64,000 nucleotides of DNA from assembly GCA_030390025.1 (NCBI GenBank), contig CM059432.1, positions 14,200,001-14,264,000 on the forward strand, read 5' to 3'. Position numbers and translations under genes: made by a program. Shown here piece after piece: positions 6,550-59,239 of the stretch. The stretch comes from Squalus acanthias. Taxonomy: Eukaryota. Position 1 is the first letter of the stretch, and every line of letters begins with the position of its first letter. The notes under the pieces are model-generated. The model was not told the DNA's origin. It saw only the letters and a program-made list of their open reading frames with translations, and did no database searches.

Positions 6550-7170
6550 TAACCGAGGCATAGAATATAAGAGCTGGGAGGTTATGCTTGAACTGTATAA
6601 AACACTAGTTAGGCTGCAGCTAGAATACTGCATGCAGTTCTGGTTACCACATTACAGGAAGATGTGATTGCACTAGAGAGGGTGCAGAGGAGATTTACAA
6701 GGATGTTGCCAGGACTGGAGAATTTTAGCTATGAGGAAAGATTGGATAGACTGCAGTTATTTTCTTTGGAACGGAGGAGGCTGAGGGGAGACCTAATTGA
6801 GGTGTATAAAATTATGAGAGACCTAGATAGAGTGAATAAGAAGGACCTATTTCCCTTAGCAGAAGGGTCAATAACCAGGGGGCATAGATTTAAAGTAATT
6901 GGTAGGAGGTTTAGAGGGGAGTTGAGGAGAAATTGTTTCACCCAGAGGGTGGTGGTGGTCTGGAACTCACTGCCTGAAAGGGTGGTAGAGGCAGAAACCC
7001 TCATCACATTTAAACAGTACTTGGATATGCACTTGAAGTGCCGTAACCTACAGGGCTACGGACCAAGAGCTGGGAAGTGGGATAAGGCTGGATAGCTCTT
7101 TGTCGGCCGGCACGGACAAGACGGGCTGAATGGCCTCCTTCTGTGCTGTAAATTTCTATGATTCTATGAT
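6550..7170 (+). mobile_element. CR1 LINE 3' fragment
   Basis: [46 protein letters not shown] 3' motif and (TTCTATGA)n tail. Confidence 0.92.
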
Positions 7171-7904
7171 AGTAATACTCACCAATTGAAAATTCATCCC
7201 TGAATCTCTACGGTAACCCATCTCCTCCCATCCTGCCAGGAGTCAGGATAACTCGAAGCCTGTTGTCTGATGATTCCATCATGTCTTTGAAGAATTACTC
7301 CAGCATAAGGCTCTAAAATGACCTAATGCTCGAGTACTTTCCTGGAAAATGCAGCACTGTTTTTAATTTATTTATTTATAAGATAACTGTTAGCAAGTGA
7401 GAAAGCATTGATTCAAAACTTCCCATGAGGTGACTGCCCTCCTGAATGGTAAAGCTCTCAATAACAGCAACTTGCAAGTATATAGCGTCCTTAACATAGA
7501 AATACCTCCAAAGGTCCTTCACAGAGGCGTAATCAAACCAAATCTGCCAACAGTATTGCGAGAGTAGGCTGGATTTTCCTACAAGGGGCAGTCATACTGA
7601 CTCGCCATACAATTTCTCTCTTTCAGTGTAGGGGGCTACAATCCATACAGAGAAGGCCATTTAAAGGACACTCGTCCCTCCACCAGGGTAGGTGTCCGCA
7701 ATTTACTGAATACCAATGAACCCTCAAATGGTAATGGGTCCTGTTGTAGGCAGGGCAAAACTTCAGCTTTGCTTCAGGGCTGGCATGACTCAAAATGATT
7801 AGGTGACACAGGAAATAGACAGAAGCAACATGGATCTTGTGGATTGTCAGATCATCCACGATTCACTGGGAGCAGCCATTAATATTCTTCACTGCGTAAG
7901 TACA

Positions 7905-47694: not shown

Positions 47695-49243
47695 ATAGAG
47701 TCATAACGGCACAGAAGGGGGCCATTTGGCCCACTGAGTCCGTGCCGGCTCTCTGTAGAGCAATCCAGTCAGTCCCATTCCCCCGCTCTATCCCCGTAGC
47801 CCTGCAAGTTTATTTCCCTCAAGTGCCTATCCAGTCTCCCCTTGAAAACACTGAGTGTCTCCGCTTCCACCACTTCCGTCGGCAGCGAATTCCAGGTCCT
47901 CACCACTCGCTGTGTAAAAAAGTTTTTCCTCACTTTCCCCCTGTATCTCTTGCCCAAAACCTTAAATCTGTGTCCCCTAGTCCTTGTACCATCAATTAGT
48001 GGGAACAGCCTTTCCCCGTCTAGCCTACCCAAATCCGTCATAATCTTGTACACCTCTATCAAATCACCTCTCAACCACCTTTGCTCTAATGAAAACAAAT
48101 CCAGCTTCTCCAACCTGTCCTTGTAGCTAAGATCCCCCATCCCCGGAACTATTCTGGTAAATCTCCTCTGCACCCTCTCAAGGGCCTTCATATCCTTCCT
48201 AAAGTGTGGTGACCAGAACTGGACGCAATACTCCAGTTGTGGCCTAACCAGTGCTTTATAAAGATTCAGCATAACTTCTCTACTTTAGTACTCAATACCT
48301 CTATTTATGAAGCCCAAGATCCCATATGCTTTGCTAACCACTCTCTGAATATGTCCTGTCACTTTCAGGGACCTTTGCACATTAACTCCCAGGTCCCTCT
48401 GTCCCTGCACACTCTTTAAAACTGTGCCATTAAGTGTATATTGCCTCTCCCTGTTCCTTCTGCCAAAATGCATCACCTCACACTTCTCTGTATTAAATTC
48501 CATCTGCCACTTGTCTGCCCATTCTGCTAGCCTTTCTATGTCCTGTTGCAGTCGATTGGTATCATCCTCACTGTTTGCCACACCCCCAAGTTTGGTGTCA
48601 TTGGCAAATTTAGAAATTCTACTCTGTATTCCAATATCCAGGTCATTTATATATATATATCAAAAAAAGCAGTGGCCCCAGCACTGACCCTTGGAGAACA
48701 CCACTGTCTACCATCCCCCAGTCTGAAAAATAGCCATTTACCACAACTCGCTGTTTTCTGTCCTTAAGCCAATTCCTTATCCAAGCTGCCACTGACCCAC
48801 CTATTCCATGAGCCTCAATTTTGTTAACCAGCCTTCTCTGCGGTACTTTGTCAAACGCCTTCCGAAAATCCACGTAGACAACATCCATTGCATTCCCTTC
48901 ATCAATCCTCCTGTTACTTCATAAAAAAATTCAATTAGATTAGTCAAACACGATCTTCCTTTTACAAATCCATGTTGGCTCTCCTTAATTAGCTTAAACC
49001 TCTCCAAGTGCCCATTAATTTTTTCCTTGATTATTGTTTCTAAAACTTTACCCTCCACTGATGTTAAACTGACCAGCCTATAGTTACTAGGATTGTCCTT
49101 ACACCCTTTCTTGAACAATGGTGTCACATTTGCCACTTTCCAATCCTCAGGCACCTCTTTAGGGAAGATTGGAAAATTATGGCAAGCCCTTCTGCTATCT
49201 CCTCCCCCAATTCCCTTAGCAACCTGGGATGCAAGTCATCTGG
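47695..49243 (-). mobile_element. CR1 LINE fragment inserted in an older + strand CR1 (47550-47690, 49245-49431, 57977-58036)
   Basis: ORFs 47769..48272, 48285..48581, 48643..48888 and 48801..49154. Confidence 0.92.
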
Positions 49244-49431
49244 AAAAAAACTTTTTTACGTAACGAGTGGTTAGGATTTGGAATGGACTGCCTGATAGAA
49301 TGGTGGATACAGATTCAATAGTAGCCTTCAAAAGGGAATTGGATGAACACTTGAAGGAGAAAAAATTACAGGGATATGGGGAAAGAGTGGGGGAGTGGGA
49401 CTAACTGGATTGCTCTTCGAAACAGCCGGCG

Positions 49432-50229
49432 TGTAGGATAGAGTGTACCTGTAGGATTTAGTAAACATTATTAAGATTCTATAACCATTTTTATATAACT
49501 ATAATATGTGAAATTGTATGTTAAAAACCTAAAAGGTCTGTATAAAATGGCGAATGGCTGATACCAAAGCAGGATGGGATATTATGCCAACCTGACTAAA
49601 AACCTCTGTTTTAAATTACTGAAGTAATGGAATGTGCTGCATAAACACGGAGACTGTCGGGGACATGATATTCGGTAATGTTATGGAAAAGAGATAAGAG
49701 CTAGAGAAGAGAGATAGGGATTGGAGACATCCTTCAATTAGGAAGCTTCAGAATAGACAAACTGTTTAGAAAACACCTCAAGAATGTTCTGTAAAGTGAA
49801 ATTCTTAGACAAGGGTATCTTGTTATGCACAGAAAGAGACCTAGTGGGATTAATAAGGTCATAAGATGACTGACAAGGAAAGGAGGGACATGTACCAGGT
49901 GTCAGAGAGCTAATTACTGCCATGTAGGCAAAACGGGAGGAAAAGGGTATAAAAATGCAGATATTGAACACTGAAGGCAGCGTGAAACCAGAGGATGAGA
50001 AGCTTCAGTCAACAGAACACAGCAAGAGAATAAAGAGACCGCGCCACAGTCACTCAGAAGGAACGCCGGGGTTCGATGATCAGACTGCGACTATCTTCTT
50101 GTTAAGTATTACTTCTTTGTACTGGATGTTTGATGCTTAATAAACCTGTTTTACTGATACACAATATACCTGTCCCCAGAGTGGTTTATGTAGACACGGA
50201 CAAATTATAAAGAGCTTTAAAAAGCTACA
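49432..50229 (+). repeat. 5' LTR
   Basis: TGTAGG..GCTACA; TATAAAA at 49948-49954; AATAAA at 50139-50144; direct repeat of 57176-57976. Confidence 0.95.
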
Positions 50230-50231
50230 GT

Positions 50232-50249
50232 TGGCGCCCAACATGGGGC
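50232..50249 (+). promoter_or_regulatory. Primer binding site, tRNA-Lys(1,2)-type
   Basis: TGGCGCCCAACATGGGGC, 2 nt after the LTR; 17/18 match to TGGCGCCCAACGTGGGGC. Confidence 0.9.
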
Positions 50250-50386
50250 TGTGACTATTAACTGAAACCAGGTTCATTGTGCACAAGGCAGGCGCTTGAT
50301 TTTTGCTTGGATTTTCGTCTGATCAACGGAAGTCCTTGTGGAAGTTAGGTTACCTAACAGATAGTGTCTCTTTAACGTACAGCAGA

Positions 50387-52110
50387 ATGTCGAGTGAAAA
50401 TTTTTATGAAGACTGTAAAACAAAGTTAACGAAGAAGTGCGAGGATGCACAGCTACAGACGTTAGTAGTGGAATGTCTAACAAAGGATAAGAGAGTATCG
50501 TTTGAGGACGTTGTCACGTTCATTGAAAAACAAGTTAAGGAGAAGAGATGGAAGCTAGATAGGGCAGTGCAGCTAATGGCCTATGCGGCAGTGTATTGTG
50601 TAGAACAAGCAATAATACAGCAACAGAGTATTAATGCAGTTCACGCCGGTGCTGCAATGTAGAACCTTGAGGAGGCTCGGTGTCAGGTAGCCTCCTTAAC
50701 AAAAGACAATGACCGTCTTACCAGCCAATTAAATGATTCACGAGGAGCCCTAAGAGAGGCTCTTCAGCGCCCCCAAAGGGAGTTGGACCACAGGCAGTGT
50801 CATATTACTATACAACAGTTGGAAAACCAGCTGGGTAAACAACGGGCTGTAATAGCGGCAGTCACGGGAGTAGACCCCCCACGAGTTATGATAAAGAATG
50901 TGAGGAGTTAAGTGGAGAGCTATGTTCTCCCTTGCTACCCCCTTCCCAAAAGGCCCCCGTCTCATATGCCACCATCGACCTGGCTAAGAGGGCCCCAGCC
51001 TACGCTGATAACAATATCATAAAAACCTCAGTGGACGAGCCTGCACCTGTTGAAGCCCCAGTTAATGTTCTGACTCGCACCCAAGTGATTCCTAACGCGC
51101 CACCAGCTGCTGACGGTGACCAGGCACAAGCAGGAGCACAACCAGCGGCAGCTCACCCGGGAATGCAGTGGGCGGGTACTTATGAACGATCCCAGCCCCT
51201 GAACTATGCAGAACTACAGGCATGTGCCCAACAATTCGGACCAGTTAACCCACAAACATGCCCCATAGAGCTAAGGCAATGTATAGTGGGGTTCCGGAAT
51301 TACCATCCTAATTCTGAGGACAGTGACATGAAAAATGTTATGCTGTCTGCCTTGACTCCGGACCTACGGATCAGTCTCCCATTCATGGCCTTGCATGTGG
51401 GTAACCCCCTGAATAACTTAATCACAACTATACAAACAGCTCTGGGCTTGGACACTATTGATCTGGTTCAGAAATTAAACTAGTCTCAACAAGGGCCTCA
51501 TGAGACCCCTGCTGCATTCGGGGATCGGTTGTACACTGTTTATGAGATGATGCAGGCACGCCCCAATGATAATGTCTTAAATGGGAAGAATGAGGCAGCA
51601 TTTAAGAAAATATACTTAAAGAATATTCAGGCCTCACTGCGAGCAGCCTTAGGGCACACTGTCAGCCACAACTCGCAATGGACAGACCTTTTAAGAGACG
51701 CTGACGCTGCACGGGCCTACACTAAAACTCAGGTTCAGGTACCAACAGCAGAGACGCCAGTGCATGTAGTTGAGGGACCCCAGGCCTCCCCAGCGTCACT
51801 ACCCCATAAGCAACCCTTGATATGTTATAACTGTGGAAAGGTGGGACACTTTGCAAAGGATTGCCGAGGTCCTAGACAGACAGGCTCTGGAGGTGGGAGG
51901 AATAATAATAATTACTCGCGATATGGTCCGTCCCGTTCACCCAATCCAATGGAGAGTAAAATAGACGTCCTAGGCTCGTGTATGGAGAGAATGTCATGTA
52001 TTATGCAAACTCTTGCATCGACCCAGCTGTCGGGGTACCCCGTGGCTCCAACTATGAGCTCGTCATTCCCGCCCCCACCGTTGCCCCAACAACCCAACGG
52101 CCCACAATGA
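50387..52110 (+). pseudogene. gag: gag (coiled-coil N-terminus, capsid-like middle, CCHC zinc knuckle), disrupted
   Basis: CYNCGKVGHFAKDC knuckle; stops at 50660 and 51481 and a frameshift near 50900. Confidence 0.85.
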
Positions 52111-52857
52111 CGGGGTCCGGCCCCACCGGCCTGGCCTGAAGTGGGGTTCAGACGAGATGGCCATGATCGACCGGTGGTCTCAGCTTTGCTGCCTGGGGGC
52201 CGACAGCAAACGATGCTAATAGACACCGGCTCATCTGTTTCAATCCTGCATTCCCCAGACCCTGAACGCCAGCTTGAAATAGGCAAACGTAGCTTCGTAA
52301 TAACAGGAGTCACCGGCGCACAGGCACCAGCATATCCAGGAGAGGAAGTTAGCATTTCCTTTGAGGCCTTCCCCATAAAAATCACTGATCCGTTATATAT
52401 GTGTATGATCAACGAAATGGGAATACTTGGCAATGACACCCTACGGGGAATGACAGCCATTATAGATTACAATCAGAACTGTTTGTGGGTTGAGTCTAAA
52501 CCAGGAGATGTAGTGCAAATTTCAGATGCCCACTCGGTGTTTGCTATAAAGAAGCCTGAGCAGATAGCACTGCTGACACATTCCCTACCTCCGTCTGAGG
52601 GAGAATTATATCCTCCCTTACCACCTCCTCCTACAGCAGTCTATGTCAGCAGTGACATGGAAAAACCCCCGCTGGACAGTTCCGCATATATCGAGAAACC
52701 AGTTAGTGTCCTAACTGGAACTCAAGTAACCCCTAAGTTGCTGAGACGCCAATTTAATAACTTCCATGTCGGTAAAACTTTAGGTTTCTCTCTCTTTTTT
52801 TTTCTTTTTTTTAATGTCTGTGCCGAGAGAAATAAAACACAAGATTTGCTGAGTTAA
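52111..52857 (+). CDS. pro: Retroviral-type aspartic protease, in frame with gag after TGA
   Basis: MLIDTGSSVS active site, ITGVTG flap, GILGNDTL motif. Confidence 0.85.
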   Translation, partial: RGPAPPAWPEVGFRRDGHDRPVVSALLPGGRQQTMLIDTGSSVSILHSPDPERQLEIGKRSFVITGVTGAQAPAYPGEEVSISFEAFPIKITDPLYMCMINEMGILGNDTLRGMTAIIDYNQNCLWVESKPGDVVQISDAHSVFAIKKPEQIALLTHSLPPSEGELYPPLPPPPTAVYVSSDMEKPPLDSSAYIEKPVSVLTGTQVTPKLLRRQFNNFHVGKTLGFSLFFFLFFNVCAERNKTQDLLS

Positions 52858-53988
52858 GGAACTTAAAAAAAAAATTCTGGAATTTCAGTTTGTGTGAAAG
52901 TGTGTGTTAAAGTGTGAAAGTTTATCTGACTATAAATGTTTAAGAAGTTACAGTATTCCTTTTGTCTGAAAAGTCTGTCTTTAAAAGAAAGATCCTGTTA
53001 TGTGTGTTTTAGCTCCACCCACTTCTCTGTGTTAAAAGCTTTTAAAACTCTTGTCTTGTCTTGGATTTTGGAAGTTTTAAGAATGTGCGAATAAGATTGT
53101 GCACCCAGAATTGAAAAAAAAACTTTGAACTACAATTTAAGTTAAGCTGGTGTGTAACAACTGAGAAGAACAACAACAAGTTTGTTTAACAAAAGATTAA
53201 GTTTCAGTCTAAGATTTATCCTTGGAGTCGCGGTTGCTATGGTGAAATTTCCAAGGCAGTTTGATTTGATTTGTTTAAATGTGAAAAACTAATTTTTCTC
53301 CAGTTGTCTTCAATGTTTTTACAGTATTTTGGAAAGGCATCTGAAGAAAGGACAATAAGAAATATGACATAATTTACTGTTTTCTGCAAGGATATGATAT
53401 TTTGCTTTGTTTTATCTGTTCTGTTCGTGTTTAGTTAAAGTGTGAAAACACAACTGTCTTTTTCGATCAGGAAAGTATTTTTAGATTTACGTGAAGTGTT
53501 GCAATTGCGTGCGCCTGACAATGTTTCGCTCCACCTTCTTAAAACCTGCAAACGAGTTAACCCTTTCCACTGACAGCTGTTTAAGTTCACCAAGCAACAA
53601 CTTTAGTATTGCTGAATGAAATTTAAAGATATTGGACATTATTAAATTTAAGTTTCTTAATTTTAAATTAATATTTCCCCACAGTGACAGAAGGAAAATT
53701 ATGATTTGATAAATTAACCCCTTGGGCTCTTAAGCAGAGTCACAATGGATTCTCTTCTTTCTTTTGTTATATGGAAGTTACCTTGTAAACTAATTGCAGC
53801 ACTTCTGTCTCTAATGTTAAAACACTGTGTAAACCACCCAGCCTGGAAATCACTTGTTTCTGAAATTGGAGTTGATAAGATAAATTGATAGAAATGAAAT
53901 TGAACATTGACAAAACCAGTCAGTTCAACAATACTGCTGTTTGGATTTTGGGATAATTTTGAAATGACAAAATGGACTCAGGCACTAT

Positions 53989-54873
53989 GGGGGAAAAATT
54001 CAGTTGGTTTGCGCCTCCCGTTAGCGCCTTAAGAGGGCGCTAATGGGGCGCAAAGCAACTAGCACCCGTGGGCGGTGATGTTTGCGCCGCTCATGAAATT
54101 AACTAGTCATTTTGCGGCGGCGCTGAACATTACCACCACGATCTCCTGCGCTGGCAGATCGTGACGTCAGTCGAGTGTGCAACGCCCCGGTAGCACCCCG
54201 GACCTGATATTGAGTGGCGCCCCCTGCCTTACTGCCTGCCGCTAGCAACGACAGGTTGAGGGGAGCGTTTTGCAGTCAGGAAGGGACTGGGGGAGCGCTA
54301 TTTAAAGGCGACCGCTTCCTGCCTTTTTTTGTTGGTGACATTTTTGCACCACGCATTCTGAGAGAGAGAGAGAGAGAGAGAGAGACTTCTGGAGAGATTC
54401 AACGCTGTGTGAAGGAGTTTTGGGTACTGAGCAGCACTTTGCAGGTTCATTTTGATTGGCCCTTCCTTGTATCGATTTAGAAGAGACTGTGGGGGCTGCA
54501 CTCTGAGCTCTTTCCCATGGCCTCTCCATTGTTCTTTCCAGCAGATTTGATGTGCAGGTCTCTCCAGGCCGAGATTCAAGGCTGCAATGAGCAGGATGTG
54601 GATGGAGAGCAAGATTAAACCTCCCCTTTAAGAACTGGCCCGTGCCATTGTGTCTGTGTTCCATTGCTGACTGACATCACACGAGCTTCGCCAGCGCTCT
54701 GAGGTAGCGCCTCGCTCCTCGGCCTTTGCGCCTTAAGACAGGTGTGTAGCACCTGATTTAGCTCTCCAATCACCTCCAGGGGCGATAAAAGCCAAGTTTG
54801 CAGTCGGAGGCGATAATTAGCACCAGGCACTAATCTTTGCGCCCCAAATGGGGCGATACTGAATTTCTCCCCC
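53989..54873 (-). mobile_element. Non-autonomous Harbinger element, copy 3 (nested in the provirus)
   Basis: TIR GGGGGAAAAATTCAGT / ACTGAATTTCTCCCCC; TSD TAT. Confidence 0.92.
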
Positions 54874-55831
54874 TATATATTTGGTTACTTTTGGGAAAAG
54901 AAAAGATCCTCTAAAATAATGATATATAAAATGTGATAATAACTTGGACTAAGTGAGAACATTTGATCTATGTTTTCAATCTTTTATATTGTACTGGACA
55001 GCAAAGTTTCTCCAGGGCTCATGAATGAGATATGAATGGTAATTAAAGGGAAGGGATTGAGGCTGTAAGATTGAAACTTGAGAATTACACCGCTGAATGA
55101 GAATTTTCAAAACTTTCTAGTGAAAGTCAGGAAAGTGTAGCTAAGAATAGTAAATTGATAGCTTTCTCTTGGAGACATTTGTGTCCCTGCCTATAATGAA
55201 TCTTTTAAGAAAACTGAATTTGGTAGTCTGGTCACTACCCAAGACATCGGGACCATGCAGAGGAAGATGAGCAAAGATTTCCAGACGACTACAATCTTTT
55301 GATAAGATACCTGAAAGCCCGAGAATGGCTTGTATTGGAGGACATGTGTGGCACGATATTGAGATACCGCTATGAGTGTGTAACTGTGATTTGTTATGTA
55401 TGAAGTAATTACCATCCGGAAATGAATGGTTAATTTGCACTGAAGAACGGGTCTCAGACATGCTCAGTTACTTGACCAGAAATGGTTAATGTGGCTCAGG
55501 AGAGTGCGACAACTTTTAAAGCATTGACACATACTCCATCGAGAAACTATCTAATTAATGAAACAATCAGAATAGAGTTAAACACACTGGTTAGAGGGAT
55601 TGAAATTGAAGTTGAAGAATTTGGATTGAGACAATTGAGGCCAAGGAGAAATCATATTAGCAAGAATTATCCACAAGATGGATACAGTGAAAGAGATCTG
55701 GAGATTCTTTTAAGTCCATGATTTGTTGATTAGATGTTAAACTGTAATGTCGTGTGAAATGATTGTAAGACTGAATTTAACTTGTAACTGTAATAATTGT
55801 GTTTTGTAGATAACAGAGCGTGGGAAAAACC

Positions 55832-56420
55832 AGGGCCTTGGTGAGACCACATCTTGAGTATTGTGTGCAGTTTTGGTCACCTTATCTGAGGAAGGAGGTT
55901 CTTGCCATGGAAGGAGTTCAGCGAAGATTCACCAGGCTGATACCTGGAATGGCAGGAATGACGTATGAGGAGCGATTGGGTCGATTGGGCTTATACCCGC
56001 TGGAGTTTAGAAGAATGAGAGGGGATCTCATTGAAACTTATAAAATTCTGACAGGACTGGACAGACTAGATGCAGGAAGGATGTTCCCGATGGTCGAGGA
56101 GTCCAGAACCAGGGGTCACAGTCTAAGGATAAGGGGTAAGCCATTTAGGACAGAAATGAGGAGAAATTTCTTCACCCAGAGAGTGGTGAACCTGTGGAAT
56201 TCTCTACCACAGAAGGCAGTAGAGGCCAATTCATTAAATATATTCAAGAAGGAGTTGGATATATTTCTTAAGGCTAAAGGGATCAAGGGATATGGGGAGA
56301 AAGCAGGGACAGGGTTCTGAATTTGGATGATCAGCCATGATCGCATTGAATGGCGGAGCAAGCTAGAGGGGCCGAATGGCCTACTCCTGCTCCTATCTTC
56401 TATGTTTCTATGTTTCTATG
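55832..56420 (+). mobile_element. CR1 LINE 3' fragment nested in the provirus
   Basis: Open 166-aa ORF; (TTTCTATG)n tail. Confidence 0.92.
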
Positions 56421-56438
56421 AATCCAGTATGAGGTGAT

Positions 56439-56825
56439 TTTAGTGGTGCTTCCTGTGTCACTACTACCGCAACTACCATGCTTTACGGGTCTAACAGGAC
56501 CTGTCCCATCAACCAACACATTTTTAAGTATGAGCTGCACAATTATGCGGCATAATTCAGATACGACATTCCCCTGTTGTTTGAGGATTTCAGTGAGCTC
56601 GTGATGCGACTGAACTCCTCTCTAAAGCATTTTTATATTTTGGAGCAAGACAACTCGAGAATAGATATTGAAATTGAAAGCATCGAGGACAACTCACACT
56701 GGTGGGATATTGGGCTTAATACATCAGCACGCCCTTAGGTTCATATTATTTCACACGCTCTGGTAGTTCTCCAACTTGTAATGATAGTGTATTTGATATA
56801 TGTAAACCGTGTAGTAAGACTTTGA
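56439..56825 (+). pseudogene. env-like membrane protein C-terminus (heptad region, WW motif, transmembrane helix)
   Basis: FSGASCVTT..LFEDFSELVMRLNSSLKHFYILEQDNSRIDIEIESIEDNSHWWDIG..HALVVLQLVMIVYLIYVNR with two internal stops; located before the 3' LTR. Confidence 0.6.
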
Positions 56826-57175
56826 ACTATGTAAGATTAGAAGTTTGATTAAGATCTACCCAGTTAAACACAAATGCCACAAGGTAGGGAGTCAAAAATT
56901 GTTAGGACTAATAATACAATATAAGGAGGGACATAGAAATTCCTCCTTGGATTAGGATAATTTCCCATGTACTGGTCATAACCCAACTTGTAGTACTGAT
57001 ATGCTTACTATTCTACACCTGCTACCTGAAACACCTATGTCCAAAACCTGATCGCGATTAAACTTGATCACAACACAGAATATTTTAGAGTTACATAAAC
57101 GTGGGAGAACAAACCCAGATGTAAGATTTTAGTTTTGAGGGGTAGTCAAAATGCCTCGGCCTCAAGGTAGGGATC

Positions 57176-57976
57176 TGCAGGATAGAGTGTACCTGTAGGA
57201 GTTAGTAAACATTATTAAGATTCTATAACCATTTTTATATAACTATAATATGTGAAATTGTATGTTAAAAACCTAAAAGGTCTGTATAAAATGGCGAATG
57301 GCTGATACCAAAGCAGGATGGGATATTGCGCCAACCTGACTAAAAACCTCTGTTTTAAATTACTGAAGTAATGGAATGTTGTGCTGCACAAACACGGAGA
57401 CTGTCGGGGACATGATATTCGGTAATGATATGGAAAAGAGATAAGAGCTAGAGAAGAGAGATAGGGATTGGAGACATCCTTCATTTAAGGAGCTGCAGAA
57501 TAGACAAACTGTTTAGAAAACACCTCAAGAATGTTCTGTAAAGTGAAATTCTTAGACAAGGGTATCTTGTTATGCACAGAAAGAGACCTAGTGGGATTAA
57601 CAAGGTCATAAGATGACTGACAAGGAAAGGAGGGACATTTACCAGGTGTCAGAGAGCTAATTACTGCCACGTAGGCAAAACGGGAGGAAAAGGGTATAAA
57701 AATGCAGATATTGAACACTGAAGGCAGCGTGAAACCAGAGGATGAGAAGCTTCAGTCAACAGAACACAGCAAGGGAATAAAGAGACCGCGCCGCAGTCAC
57801 TCGGAAGGAACGCCGGGGTTCGATGAACAGACTGCGACTATCTTCTTGTTAAGTATTATTTCTTTGTACTGGATGTTTAATGCTTAATAAACCTGTTTTA
57901 CTGATACACAATATACCTGTACCCGGAGTGGTTTGTGTAGTCACGGACAAATTATAAAGAGCTTTAAAAAGCTACA
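57176..57976 (+). repeat. 3' LTR
   Basis: TGCAGG..GCTACA; preceded by purine-rich AAGGTAGGGA. Confidence 0.95.
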
Positions 57977-59239
57977 GGCGCAGACTCGATGGGCCAAATG
58001 GCCTCCTTCTGTGCGGTACTAGTCTATGATTCTATGCTGAACATTCAAGGCACCCACAGTAATATCTTAGGAGTCAGCCATTTTCCCTTTCTATCATCAT
58101 TAAGTAGGTAAATAACAGTCCGTATCACCATAGACCTGCTATAAACTGATAGTTATGGGCAAAAGCTGCATGTGGGATGTCCAAAAGTCTTACCTGTTGA
58201 AAATCATTGGCTGGAAGAGCTAAATGTTACTCCATTGGAATAACAGATGGTAAATGATTCATATTATATTACATTATCATATAAATTCATTACGCACGCC
58301 ATCCTTCATACGATGCCTCCAACCTAACTTATTGTGGATCTCGAGTAGAGACGGAAGGTGCAGAAACCAAGCCCCTTTTTCTATTGGACCTTGACTGCAC
58401 GCAGGTAATAGGGCGAGTGGTGCTCAGAGTTCATGGGACAGCTGGTGAGCATGCTGTCCCAGAGCCCCAGCAGTTGTGCAAAAGTGCCTTCATTAACCAT
58501 CATATGGACAGCCTAAAGTTATAGGGAACTGCTTATAATGATAGCCCCCAAAAATTCACAGCAGCAACAAAAGTAATTGCATTCCAGAAACTTAAGTTTC
58601 TCCACAAGAAAATACAAGCTTTAACAATCAGTTCCATAGCAGCACGCATGCTGAGCTCCATCCTTAACTGTCACGCCATCCACTTTAGCTTGATGAACAA
58701 TGCTCAGTCCCACGGTAGCCATTTCTAATTATAAAAAAAGTGTTTTAGTGCGAATCACCTACTGGTAGCTACAGTGAAAGTTACATTGTGGTATGTGTTT
58801 TCATATTTTTAGATGTGGGAGAGTGATTCATACAGAAATGTGGCTTAGATACTGGTTATTTTGATTCGTAGAAGAAAGACACGGAGAATGAGTGCGTGAC
58901 GTTTACTTTGGAATCATTATTTCCAGCATTCGCGCATGGAGTCATGAATATTCCCTCCTGGCGAGCATTCTGCTAACTGTGGTGAAGTACTCCTCCTGAA
59001 GCTGTTTAAAACAGCACTAACCTAGCTGTAGACTTGCCAGAATACACTTTGAAATTCGCAGTACACTGAAGCATCGTTACGCAAATGCAAATTCCTGTAG
59101 ATCGAACCAATCAAGTGTTAATTCCTGTAGATTGAACCATATATTAAAATGTCTTTCAATGTTATTTATAAACTGTCCCTTCAAAAATGGGATACTTTAA
59201 CCAGAACACATGGATTATGTGCAAGCTGGGAGGATTCTC

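Follow-up and report, generated by a model that had tools for sequence, protein, structure and literature searches.

A decayed pol- and env-less mosaic of a foamy-like endogenous retrovirus in the Squalus acanthias genome, likely mobilized by Pol from pol-bearing relatives

A provirus-like element with a replaced center occupies positions 49432 to 57976 of a 64,000-nucleotide stretch of the Squalus acanthias genome (assembly GCA_030390025.1, contig CM059432.1, positions 14,200,001 to 14,264,000 of the forward strand; hereafter the window, whose numbering is used throughout). At a probability of roughly 0.85, we read it as one decayed copy of a multi-copy mosaic derived from a foamy-like endogenous retrovirus (ERV), lacking pol and env, and likely reverse-transcribed and integrated by Pol provided in trans by pol-bearing relatives. 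Homology to these relatives stops at 52589/52590, a few codons into the reverse transcriptase (RT), and restarts at 56818 in the env tail. The filler in between (52591–56817) consists of a diverged scrap of gag, a non-coding module of ~2.6 kb, and, as its third piece, an env tail that is likewise diverged. The layout comprises target-site duplications (TSDs), long terminal repeats (LTRs), a primer-binding site (PBS), a polypurine tract (PPT), and two nested insertions, one of them with terminal inverted repeats (TIRs) and the other from a long interspersed nuclear element (LINE):

49428..49431, forward strand: 5' TSD GGCG, matching 57977–57980
49432..50229, forward strand: 5' LTR with TG..CA ends, 97% identical to the 3' LTR
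50232..50249, forward strand: PBS for tRNA-Lys(CTT), 17/18 bases, compared with the genome's own tRNA genes
50387..52110, forward strand: gag, with zf-CCHC at 5.2e-8 (Pfam), ending at TGA 52108–52110
52111..52590, forward strand: protease and first RT codons, DTG at 52222–52230, in frame behind the gag TGA
52591..52740, forward strand: diverged second copy of a gag p12-like segment, colinear with gag 50915–51105
52741..53988, forward strand: non-coding AT-rich module, part 1, 91–94% shared with copies outside the ERV
53989..54872, no strand assigned: later insertion, an 884-bp non-autonomous DNA transposon with TIR GGGGGAAAAATTCAG and TSD CTAT, not in sister copies
54873..55833, forward strand: non-coding module, part 2, from sister-copy comparison
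55834..56416, forward strand: later insertion, the 3' end of a 5'-truncated LINE, not in sister copies
56417..56817, forward strand: non-coding module, part 3, including the diverged second env tail
56818..57173, forward strand: remnants of the family's own env and the PPT, from homology to pol-bearing relatives
57164–57173, forward strand: PPT AAGGTAGGGA, the purine tract before the 3' LTR
57176..57976, forward strand: 3' LTR, from alignment of the LTR pair
57977..57980, forward strand: 3' TSD GGCG, matching 49428–49431

The first-pass annotation, made from the letters alone, had seen no RT, RNase H, or integrase in this center. A Pfam scan of 52600–57176 in all six frames, with stops read as X, likewise found none of these families at E up to 1, decayed RT or integrase included, and tblastx with the pol of the pol-bearing relative L017 gave no match between 52745 and 56535. 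The ~2 kb of AT-rich DNA that had been put in place of pol was an underestimate, as ~3.1 kb lie between the breakpoint and the 3' LTR after removal of the nested insertions. Both nested elements had been recognized correctly: 53989–54872 and 55834–56416 are later insertions because sister copies show empty sites at both, and the LINE fragment is one that we take to be CR1-like. Within the filler, the gag scrap is ~50% identical at the amino acid level to the gag of L017, the second env tail (56535–56798, with a membrane-anchor remnant) is 45% identical to L017 env, and the first part of the module has a GC content of 31–35%. A 57-bp inversion at 52754–52810 is private to the window relative to every other copy examined and explains the opposite-strand mini-matches in the genome searches. 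The family's own env is reduced to a 100-bp fragment (56818–56919) followed by the cytoplasmic tail (~56931–57173), and the ~679 bp of env that relatives carry between the two are missing from the window copy. Rfam gave no match within 49000–58400 at E up to 0.1. A second copy of the 884-bp TIR element (91%) lies in L012 at 6681–7576, ~300 bp from a copy of the module.

Everything that a retroviral RNA needs in cis has been kept: both LTRs, the tRNA-Lys(CTT) PBS, the leader with gag, and the PPT. Aligned with MAFFT, the two LTRs (799/802 bp) showed 23 substitutions plus a single 3-bp indel (Kimura two-parameter distance, K2P, 0.029), the same count as had been made by eye. Both LTRs start with TG and end with CA, and the 4-bp duplication noted earlier was found as GGCG on either side. 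The PBS (TGGCGCCCAACATGGGGC) starts two bases past the 5' LTR. As the tRNA-Lys(CTT) genes of the assembly end in GCCCCACGTTGGGCG (four loci confirmed by ARAGORN), it is one mismatch away from the tRNA 3' end plus CCA and therefore a Lys PBS, as proposed; four sister copies (L003, L004, L008, and L010) match the same tRNA at 18/18 bases. A whole-genome LTR search returned 1170 first-look candidates in the 3.7-Gb assembly. Separately, tRNA-Lys(CTT)-type 3' ends occur in long arrays (G000:C26:44311009-44345137 and C21:9.9-11.0 Mb), the former with a period of ~1798 bp, and the 21-base tRNA-Lys(CTT) 3'-end pattern has 215 exact matches overall. Immediately upstream of the provirus and unrelated to it, a LINE reverse-transcriptase fragment (RVT_1, 3.1e-7) occupies 48801–49235 on the reverse strand.

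The breakpoints of the window element are shared by a family. We compared 34 stretches from the assembly with the window by BLASTN and, in genome searches, scored the best 40 candidates per query; the resulting counts are lower bounds and their ratios rough. Copies L001–L005 align to 50608–53988, 54873–55833, and 56417–57321 at 85–93% and lack the two insertions, L030 has the full window layout, and L031 follows it up to 53250, where the match ends. A 301-bp query over the 52590 junction yielded 159 first-look candidates. Among the 40 scored, 8 span the junction as the window does, 2 are pol-bearing, and the others fall into shorter classes, starting at 52591 (16 matches), at 52600–52602 (10), or at 52638 (4), so that forms without capsid (CA), nucleocapsid (NC), and protease (PR) stand against the gag-pro-bearing pol-less form at 30 to 8. 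At the junctions, copies differ from each other by 2–4 bases within 34 bases. TSDs are GGCG in the window, CACC in L001, CCTT in L005, AAGA in L010 (a shorter form), and AGAG in the pol-bearing L017, and those of L007 and L008 match at 3/4 bases. The first-pass annotation had suggested a non-autonomous family and not a simple post-insertion deletion. This was borne out by the recurrence of the junctions in the 8 of 40 scored matches and in L001–L005, L030, and L031, and by the distinct TSDs (the first three above) of copies with the same pol-less layout. Its prospect that sister copies might all carry pol at this position held for part of them, as some sisters have pol here and others do not.

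The shorter derivatives were examined in two copies per class. In each, gag is truncated and joined at 51885, 50983, or 51152 to the gag scrap. Junction 50983 is a crossover at the homologous position of gag and scrap, junction 51152 shows 5–6 bases of microhomology, and junction 51885 contains filler; judged from these sequences, the 50983 and 51152 junctions look like deletions between the two gag-like repeats. Together with the window form, L006–L010, L032, and L033 make up four pol-less architectures, whose left breakpoints lie up to 1.6 kb apart in gag-pro, whereas all right breakpoints fall within 50 bases (52591–52641) at the start of the gag scrap. In four public runs from two studies, contigs cross the shorter junctions 51885/52591 (X17, X18) and 50943/52641 (X20) as well as the empty site of either nested insertion, which shows that the shorter pol-less forms and the empty sites exist in other samples. 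These four runs are putatively RNA, and nothing is drawn from their depth or uncovered parts, including the observation that zero contigs fall on 51997–52281 and hardly any on 52282–52566. The length of U3 varies between 654 and 864 bp across copies. LTR pairs on C26 spaced 7.2 and 11.5 kb apart (L015, L016, and L019) were considered as proviruses and rejected: with identical flanks on both sides, these LTRs (8.2-8.8 Mb and 11.5-11.8 Mb) represent one solo LTR inside a unit that was duplicated in tandem or segmentally.

Candidate helpers exist in the same genome. A pol-bearing element with the LTR ends and PBS of the window copy had been named as something to look for, and seven such loci were found (L017, L021, L023, and L025–L028), with the same gag and protease as well. 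Across the shared parts (LTR, Lys PBS, gag-pro, and env tail), L017 and the six other loci are 82–95% identical to the window. Their gag-protease identity is 86% for L017 and 87–95% for the other six, equal to that of the pol-less sisters. L017 and L018 together form a 10.1-kb element with the same LTR and Lys PBS. Its pol has the Pfam domains RVT_1 (2.5e-35), RT_RNaseH_2 (tether/RNase H-like), RNase_H, Integrase_H2C2, and rve, followed by env-like frames totaling ~2.4 kb that contain an RQKR site and, at the C-terminus, a membrane anchor. A 301-bp query over the pro-to-RT junction gave 103 first-look candidates, of which all of the best 40 scored span the junction, and a DNA search with pol gave 1395 first-look candidates. 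On this rough measure, pol-less forms appear at least as common as pol-bearing ones (38/40 versus 40/40 scored junction matches).

The RT of the relatives matched foamy PR-RT structures best (7o0h and 7kse, 4.5e-44), ahead of Ty3 (8e-31) and murine leukemia virus (about 1e-25), and their integrase matched that of prototype foamy virus (PFV) best (6.8e-33), ahead of Ty3 (1e-25). The best longer homologue of the relative's Pol is a Xenopus tropicalis protein (49% identity), which fits the published grouping of a frog foamy-like endogenous retrovirus (FLERV) with shark FLERVs (PMC5512871). Most mammalian foamy viruses use a tRNA-Lys primer (PMC5512871), and foamy Gag is described as having GR boxes and no Cys-His motif, with Pol made separately (PMC3705302; PMC3196705). 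The parent family departs from this Gag trait: zf-CCHC was detected both in the window (5.2e-8) and in L017 (1.2e-7), and the Protein Data Bank (PDB) matches of Gag are solely to orthoretroviral NC. The hallmark of lokiretroviruses is reported to be an Env similar to the paramyxovirus fusion glycoprotein PF00523 (PMC7947760). The env pieces of L017 matched no Pfam family at E up to 0.01, PF00523 included, and gave chance coiled-coil matches or nothing against the PDB at E up to 1. Of the spuma- or loki-like affinity suggested earlier, the spuma-like half therefore stands for the relatives' Pol, and the loki half found no match. By these structure-sequence matches, which are not a phylogeny, the parent family has a foamy-like Pol, but its CCHC-bearing Gag and the in-frame protease behind the gag stop set it apart from canonical foamy viruses.

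The module is far more widespread than the ERV that carries it. A 1.4-kb module query returned 3281 first-look candidates, and 29 of the best 40 scored lack the ERV gag-remnant side. In three of the four stand-alone copies examined (L011, L013, and L014), the module adjoins LTR-like direct repeats, both of which are present in two copies. Two of the four have a PPT-like tract plus TGTA ahead of the 3' repeat, and L014 has a PBS-like TGG motif (TGGCACCCCAGATGGGAC) after the 5' repeat, at the position of a PBS. Given such repeats and PPT- and PBS-like motifs around the stand-alone module, the best reading of the filler is internal sequence from an older non-coding LTR retroelement, which itself came from a distant relative of the virus. 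This module-bearing LTR-like family is very abundant and non-coding, with direct repeats of 0.9–1.55 kb (L011 at G000:C1:34368927-34378926, L013, and L014), and its PPT-like GAGGTGGGGAT plus TGTA resembles the ERV's own. Within the module, a frame of ~75–110 codons at 55433–55721 is open in most of 17 copies (the window and 16 loci), and this stretch is less variable than its flanks (0.027 versus 0.047–0.064). Its ~75-codon core (~55433–55660) was considered as a protein gene and rejected, as its minor alleles number 34, 26, and 38 at the first, second, and third codon positions and thus show no third-position excess. The low variation could reflect nucleotide-level constraint or chance.

In the window copy, gag encodes a coiled-coil-like N-terminal part, a p12-like region, CA, and NC, in that order, with a single CCHC knuckle in NC at ~51823–51867. 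It was initially taken as one frame with the protease and is in fact in pieces, with stops at 50660 and 51481, a frameshift near 50839–50911, and a window-private deletion of ~180 bp at 50608/9. The frame with the protease is open over 248 aa (52111–52857), and its RVP match (E 5.9e-4, 20.5 bits) lies slightly below the 20.7 cut-off, with the DTG present. That this frame runs on to 52857 had been seen correctly, whereas its supposed Pro-rich tail is the diverged second copy of the gag segment. The gag TGA followed by an in-frame protease occurs in 14/15 copies (window 52108–52113, L001–L005, L017, L021, L023, L025–L028, and L031). Such a protease in frame after the gag stop is an orthoretrovirus-like layout on a foamy-like Pol, with readthrough as its likely mode of expression, and it speaks against a Pol made separately as in foamy viruses. 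In each of the 17 gag-pro copies examined, those of pol-bearing relatives among them, CA-NC-PR is interrupted by one or more stops or frameshifting indels. These lesions are private to single copies or to a group of duplicates on C6, and therefore the gag-pro sources were still open when copied.

LTR pairs place the different forms close together in time, with K2P distances of 0.029–0.032 for three copies of the window form, 0.030–0.047 for shorter forms, and 0.022 for L017. In a gag-pro tree, the 17 copies radiate as in a star and pol-less copies are intermixed with pol-bearing ones; supported structure exists solely in the C6 duplicates and an L017/L026 pair. Given the similar LTR divergences and the interleaved tree, all forms were active in the same period. 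Under a neutral rate typical of vertebrates, this period would lie on the order of ten million years back. On such a tree, with its unsupported internal branches, dN/dS of gag-pro would measure only post-insertion decay.

We hypothesize that the mosaic arose when reverse transcription switched templates between viral RNA and the RNA of an older non-autonomous retroelement packaged with it. Helper RT would have primed on tRNA-Lys(CTT), and helper integrase would have made the 4-bp duplications. The element's own gag-pro may have been dispensable for spread, because the shorter forms without CA-NC-PR spread more. Several points weigh against this account. Trans-mobilization is deduced from architecture, TSDs, and co-occurrence. 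With every gag-pro copy broken, the candidate helpers among them, none of the 17 is a working helper, and a source gag-pro that appears to have been open when copied leaves room for a contribution of the element's own Gag or protease. The evidence for independent insertions is also thinner than the copy number implies. L004, L005, and L030 (all C6) are segmental duplicates that group with 100% support, and the 3' flank is common to L004 and L005; the three count as one, which brings the independent insertions of the window form down to only about six. The 5' flank of L002 is PPT-like and its TSD unconfirmed, and the LTRs of L005 (G000:C6:62127247-62137246) differ by 0.124 although CCTT flanks both, a sign that an LTR may have been exchanged or converted with that of another subfamily. 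Whether the module moved into the ERV or out of it is read from abundance and context and not from a rooted tree.

The plainest alternative, that a single full-length provirus lost pol and env in place by deletion and unrelated insertions, has next to no likelihood. Most old proviruses do decay by deletion, and the window copy has its share of private post-integration changes (the 50608/9 deletion, the 57-bp inversion, and the two nested insertions). However, the breakpoints at 52590, ~52740, and 56818 are found again at further loci, whose flanks and TSDs are different, and the filler is not decayed pol, its sequence being present thousands of times elsewhere, so that the sister copies refute such a loss. 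A filler transduced from a host cellular RNA in the manner of oncogene capture, in place of an older retroelement, is improbable. It would agree with a module in which no coding or RNA family is recognizable, yet the module sits between a diverged piece of gag and an env tail, also diverged, that has a membrane anchor; the module has thousands of copies, and three of the four copies examined outside the ERV lie next to LTR-like direct repeats, some with PPT- or PBS-like motifs.

A closer competitor is the satellite model of the first-pass annotation, in which spread required the element's own Gag and protease, packaging its own RNA preferentially, and only RT and integrase were borrowed. CA-NC-PR lesions that are private per copy (the C6 duplicates apart) mean a source that was open when copied, the gag TGA and in-frame protease have been kept in nearly all copies, and gag flanks could be conserved for their effects in cis on trans-complementation (PMC10924933). 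On the other side, forms without CA, NC, and protease are commoner (30 versus 8 of 40 scored) at similar LTR ages, the gag-pro tree offers no pol-less clade or internal branch on which constraint could be measured, and frequent recombination with helpers would keep gag-pro open equally well. Dependence on a self-made capsid finds no support, given the majority of CA-NC-PR-less forms and the broken gag of the window copy, and we regard this model as unlikely, if less so than the host-RNA origin. Dependence on pol-bearing relatives for mobilization in trans remains the favored explanation.

Comparable takeovers have been described in mammals. In mouse ETn/MusD, recombinant koala retrovirus (recKoRV) and KoRV-A, and the D- and C-type bovine ERVK elements, an old retroelement has taken the place of the center between retained gag and env flanks, and defective forms dominate (PMC10924933). 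The window family shows the traits of such trans-mobilized recombinant ERVs, with a shared LTR, PBS, and PPT, a replaced center, no pol of its own, and several sites with their own TSDs. One close counterpart is recKoRV, a recombinant of KoRV and the old retroelement PhER, which keeps the 5' LTR-gag and env-tail-3' LTR sides of a coding-competent virus around an older degraded center and whose recombinants spread to new sites beside the intact virus (PMC10924933, PMC6112702). By contrast, the window family is foamy-like in Pol, resides in a cartilaginous fish, and is millions of years old and not recent; its mosaic has at least three foreign pieces plus shorter derivatives, and its donor greatly outnumbers the virus. 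ETn is likewise non-autonomous, sharing LTRs and flanks with a competent ERV around an unrelated non-coding center, and is mobilized in trans (PMC10924933), which for the window family is a likely reading of fossil copies. ETn has no protease and only gag scraps, in contrast to the whole gag and protease that the window form keeps, and MusD is a betaretrovirus-like class II element. In the ERVK[2-1-LTR] case from cattle, defective D-type elements dominate new insertions, need competent C-type copies, and are called a 'parasite-of-parasite', and their flanks conserve parts of GAG and ENV (PMC10924933). That case was shown by de novo insertions and a genome-wide association study (PMC10924933), unlike the window family with its fossil copies only. 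Taken together, the window family appears to follow this pattern of a parasite of a parasite, with mobilization in trans as its likely mode of spread.

Among foamy-like elements, the FLERVs of fishes and amphibians resemble the window family in that the relative's Pol is near foamy PR-RT and PFV integrase and the PBS is of the tRNA-Lys type (PMC5512871). From foamy viruses as described in PMC3705302, the window family differs in a Gag with a CCHC knuckle and a protease in frame after the gag stop. As far as the text of PMC5512871 was available, it does not mention pol-less mosaic derivatives of FLERVs. Mammalian foamy viruses and vectors are reported to need a cis-acting packaging sequence within pol (PMC3705302). 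A bolder scenario, to which we give only a small chance, is that a foamy-like lineage of cartilaginous fishes was overrun by its own pol-less mosaics. Pol-dependent packaging would then have arisen later, or the module would supply the packaging function, and the form with open gag-pro would represent a half-autonomous, self-packaging stage that stole only RT and integrase.

For annotation, the AT-rich filler is better masked as a repeat family of its own than as ERV interior. Derivatives without any pol sequence came out at least as common among the scored matches as the pol-bearing form (38/40 versus 40/40, on the rough measure given above), the implication being that this foamy-like lineage tolerated the full loss of pol in its mobilized RNAs. 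Mouse, koala, and cattle are the hosts in which this pattern has been described so far; the window family extends it to an early-branching vertebrate and a foamy-like lineage, and this extension supports the view that takeover by recombinants with old retroelements is a general route to ERV extinction.

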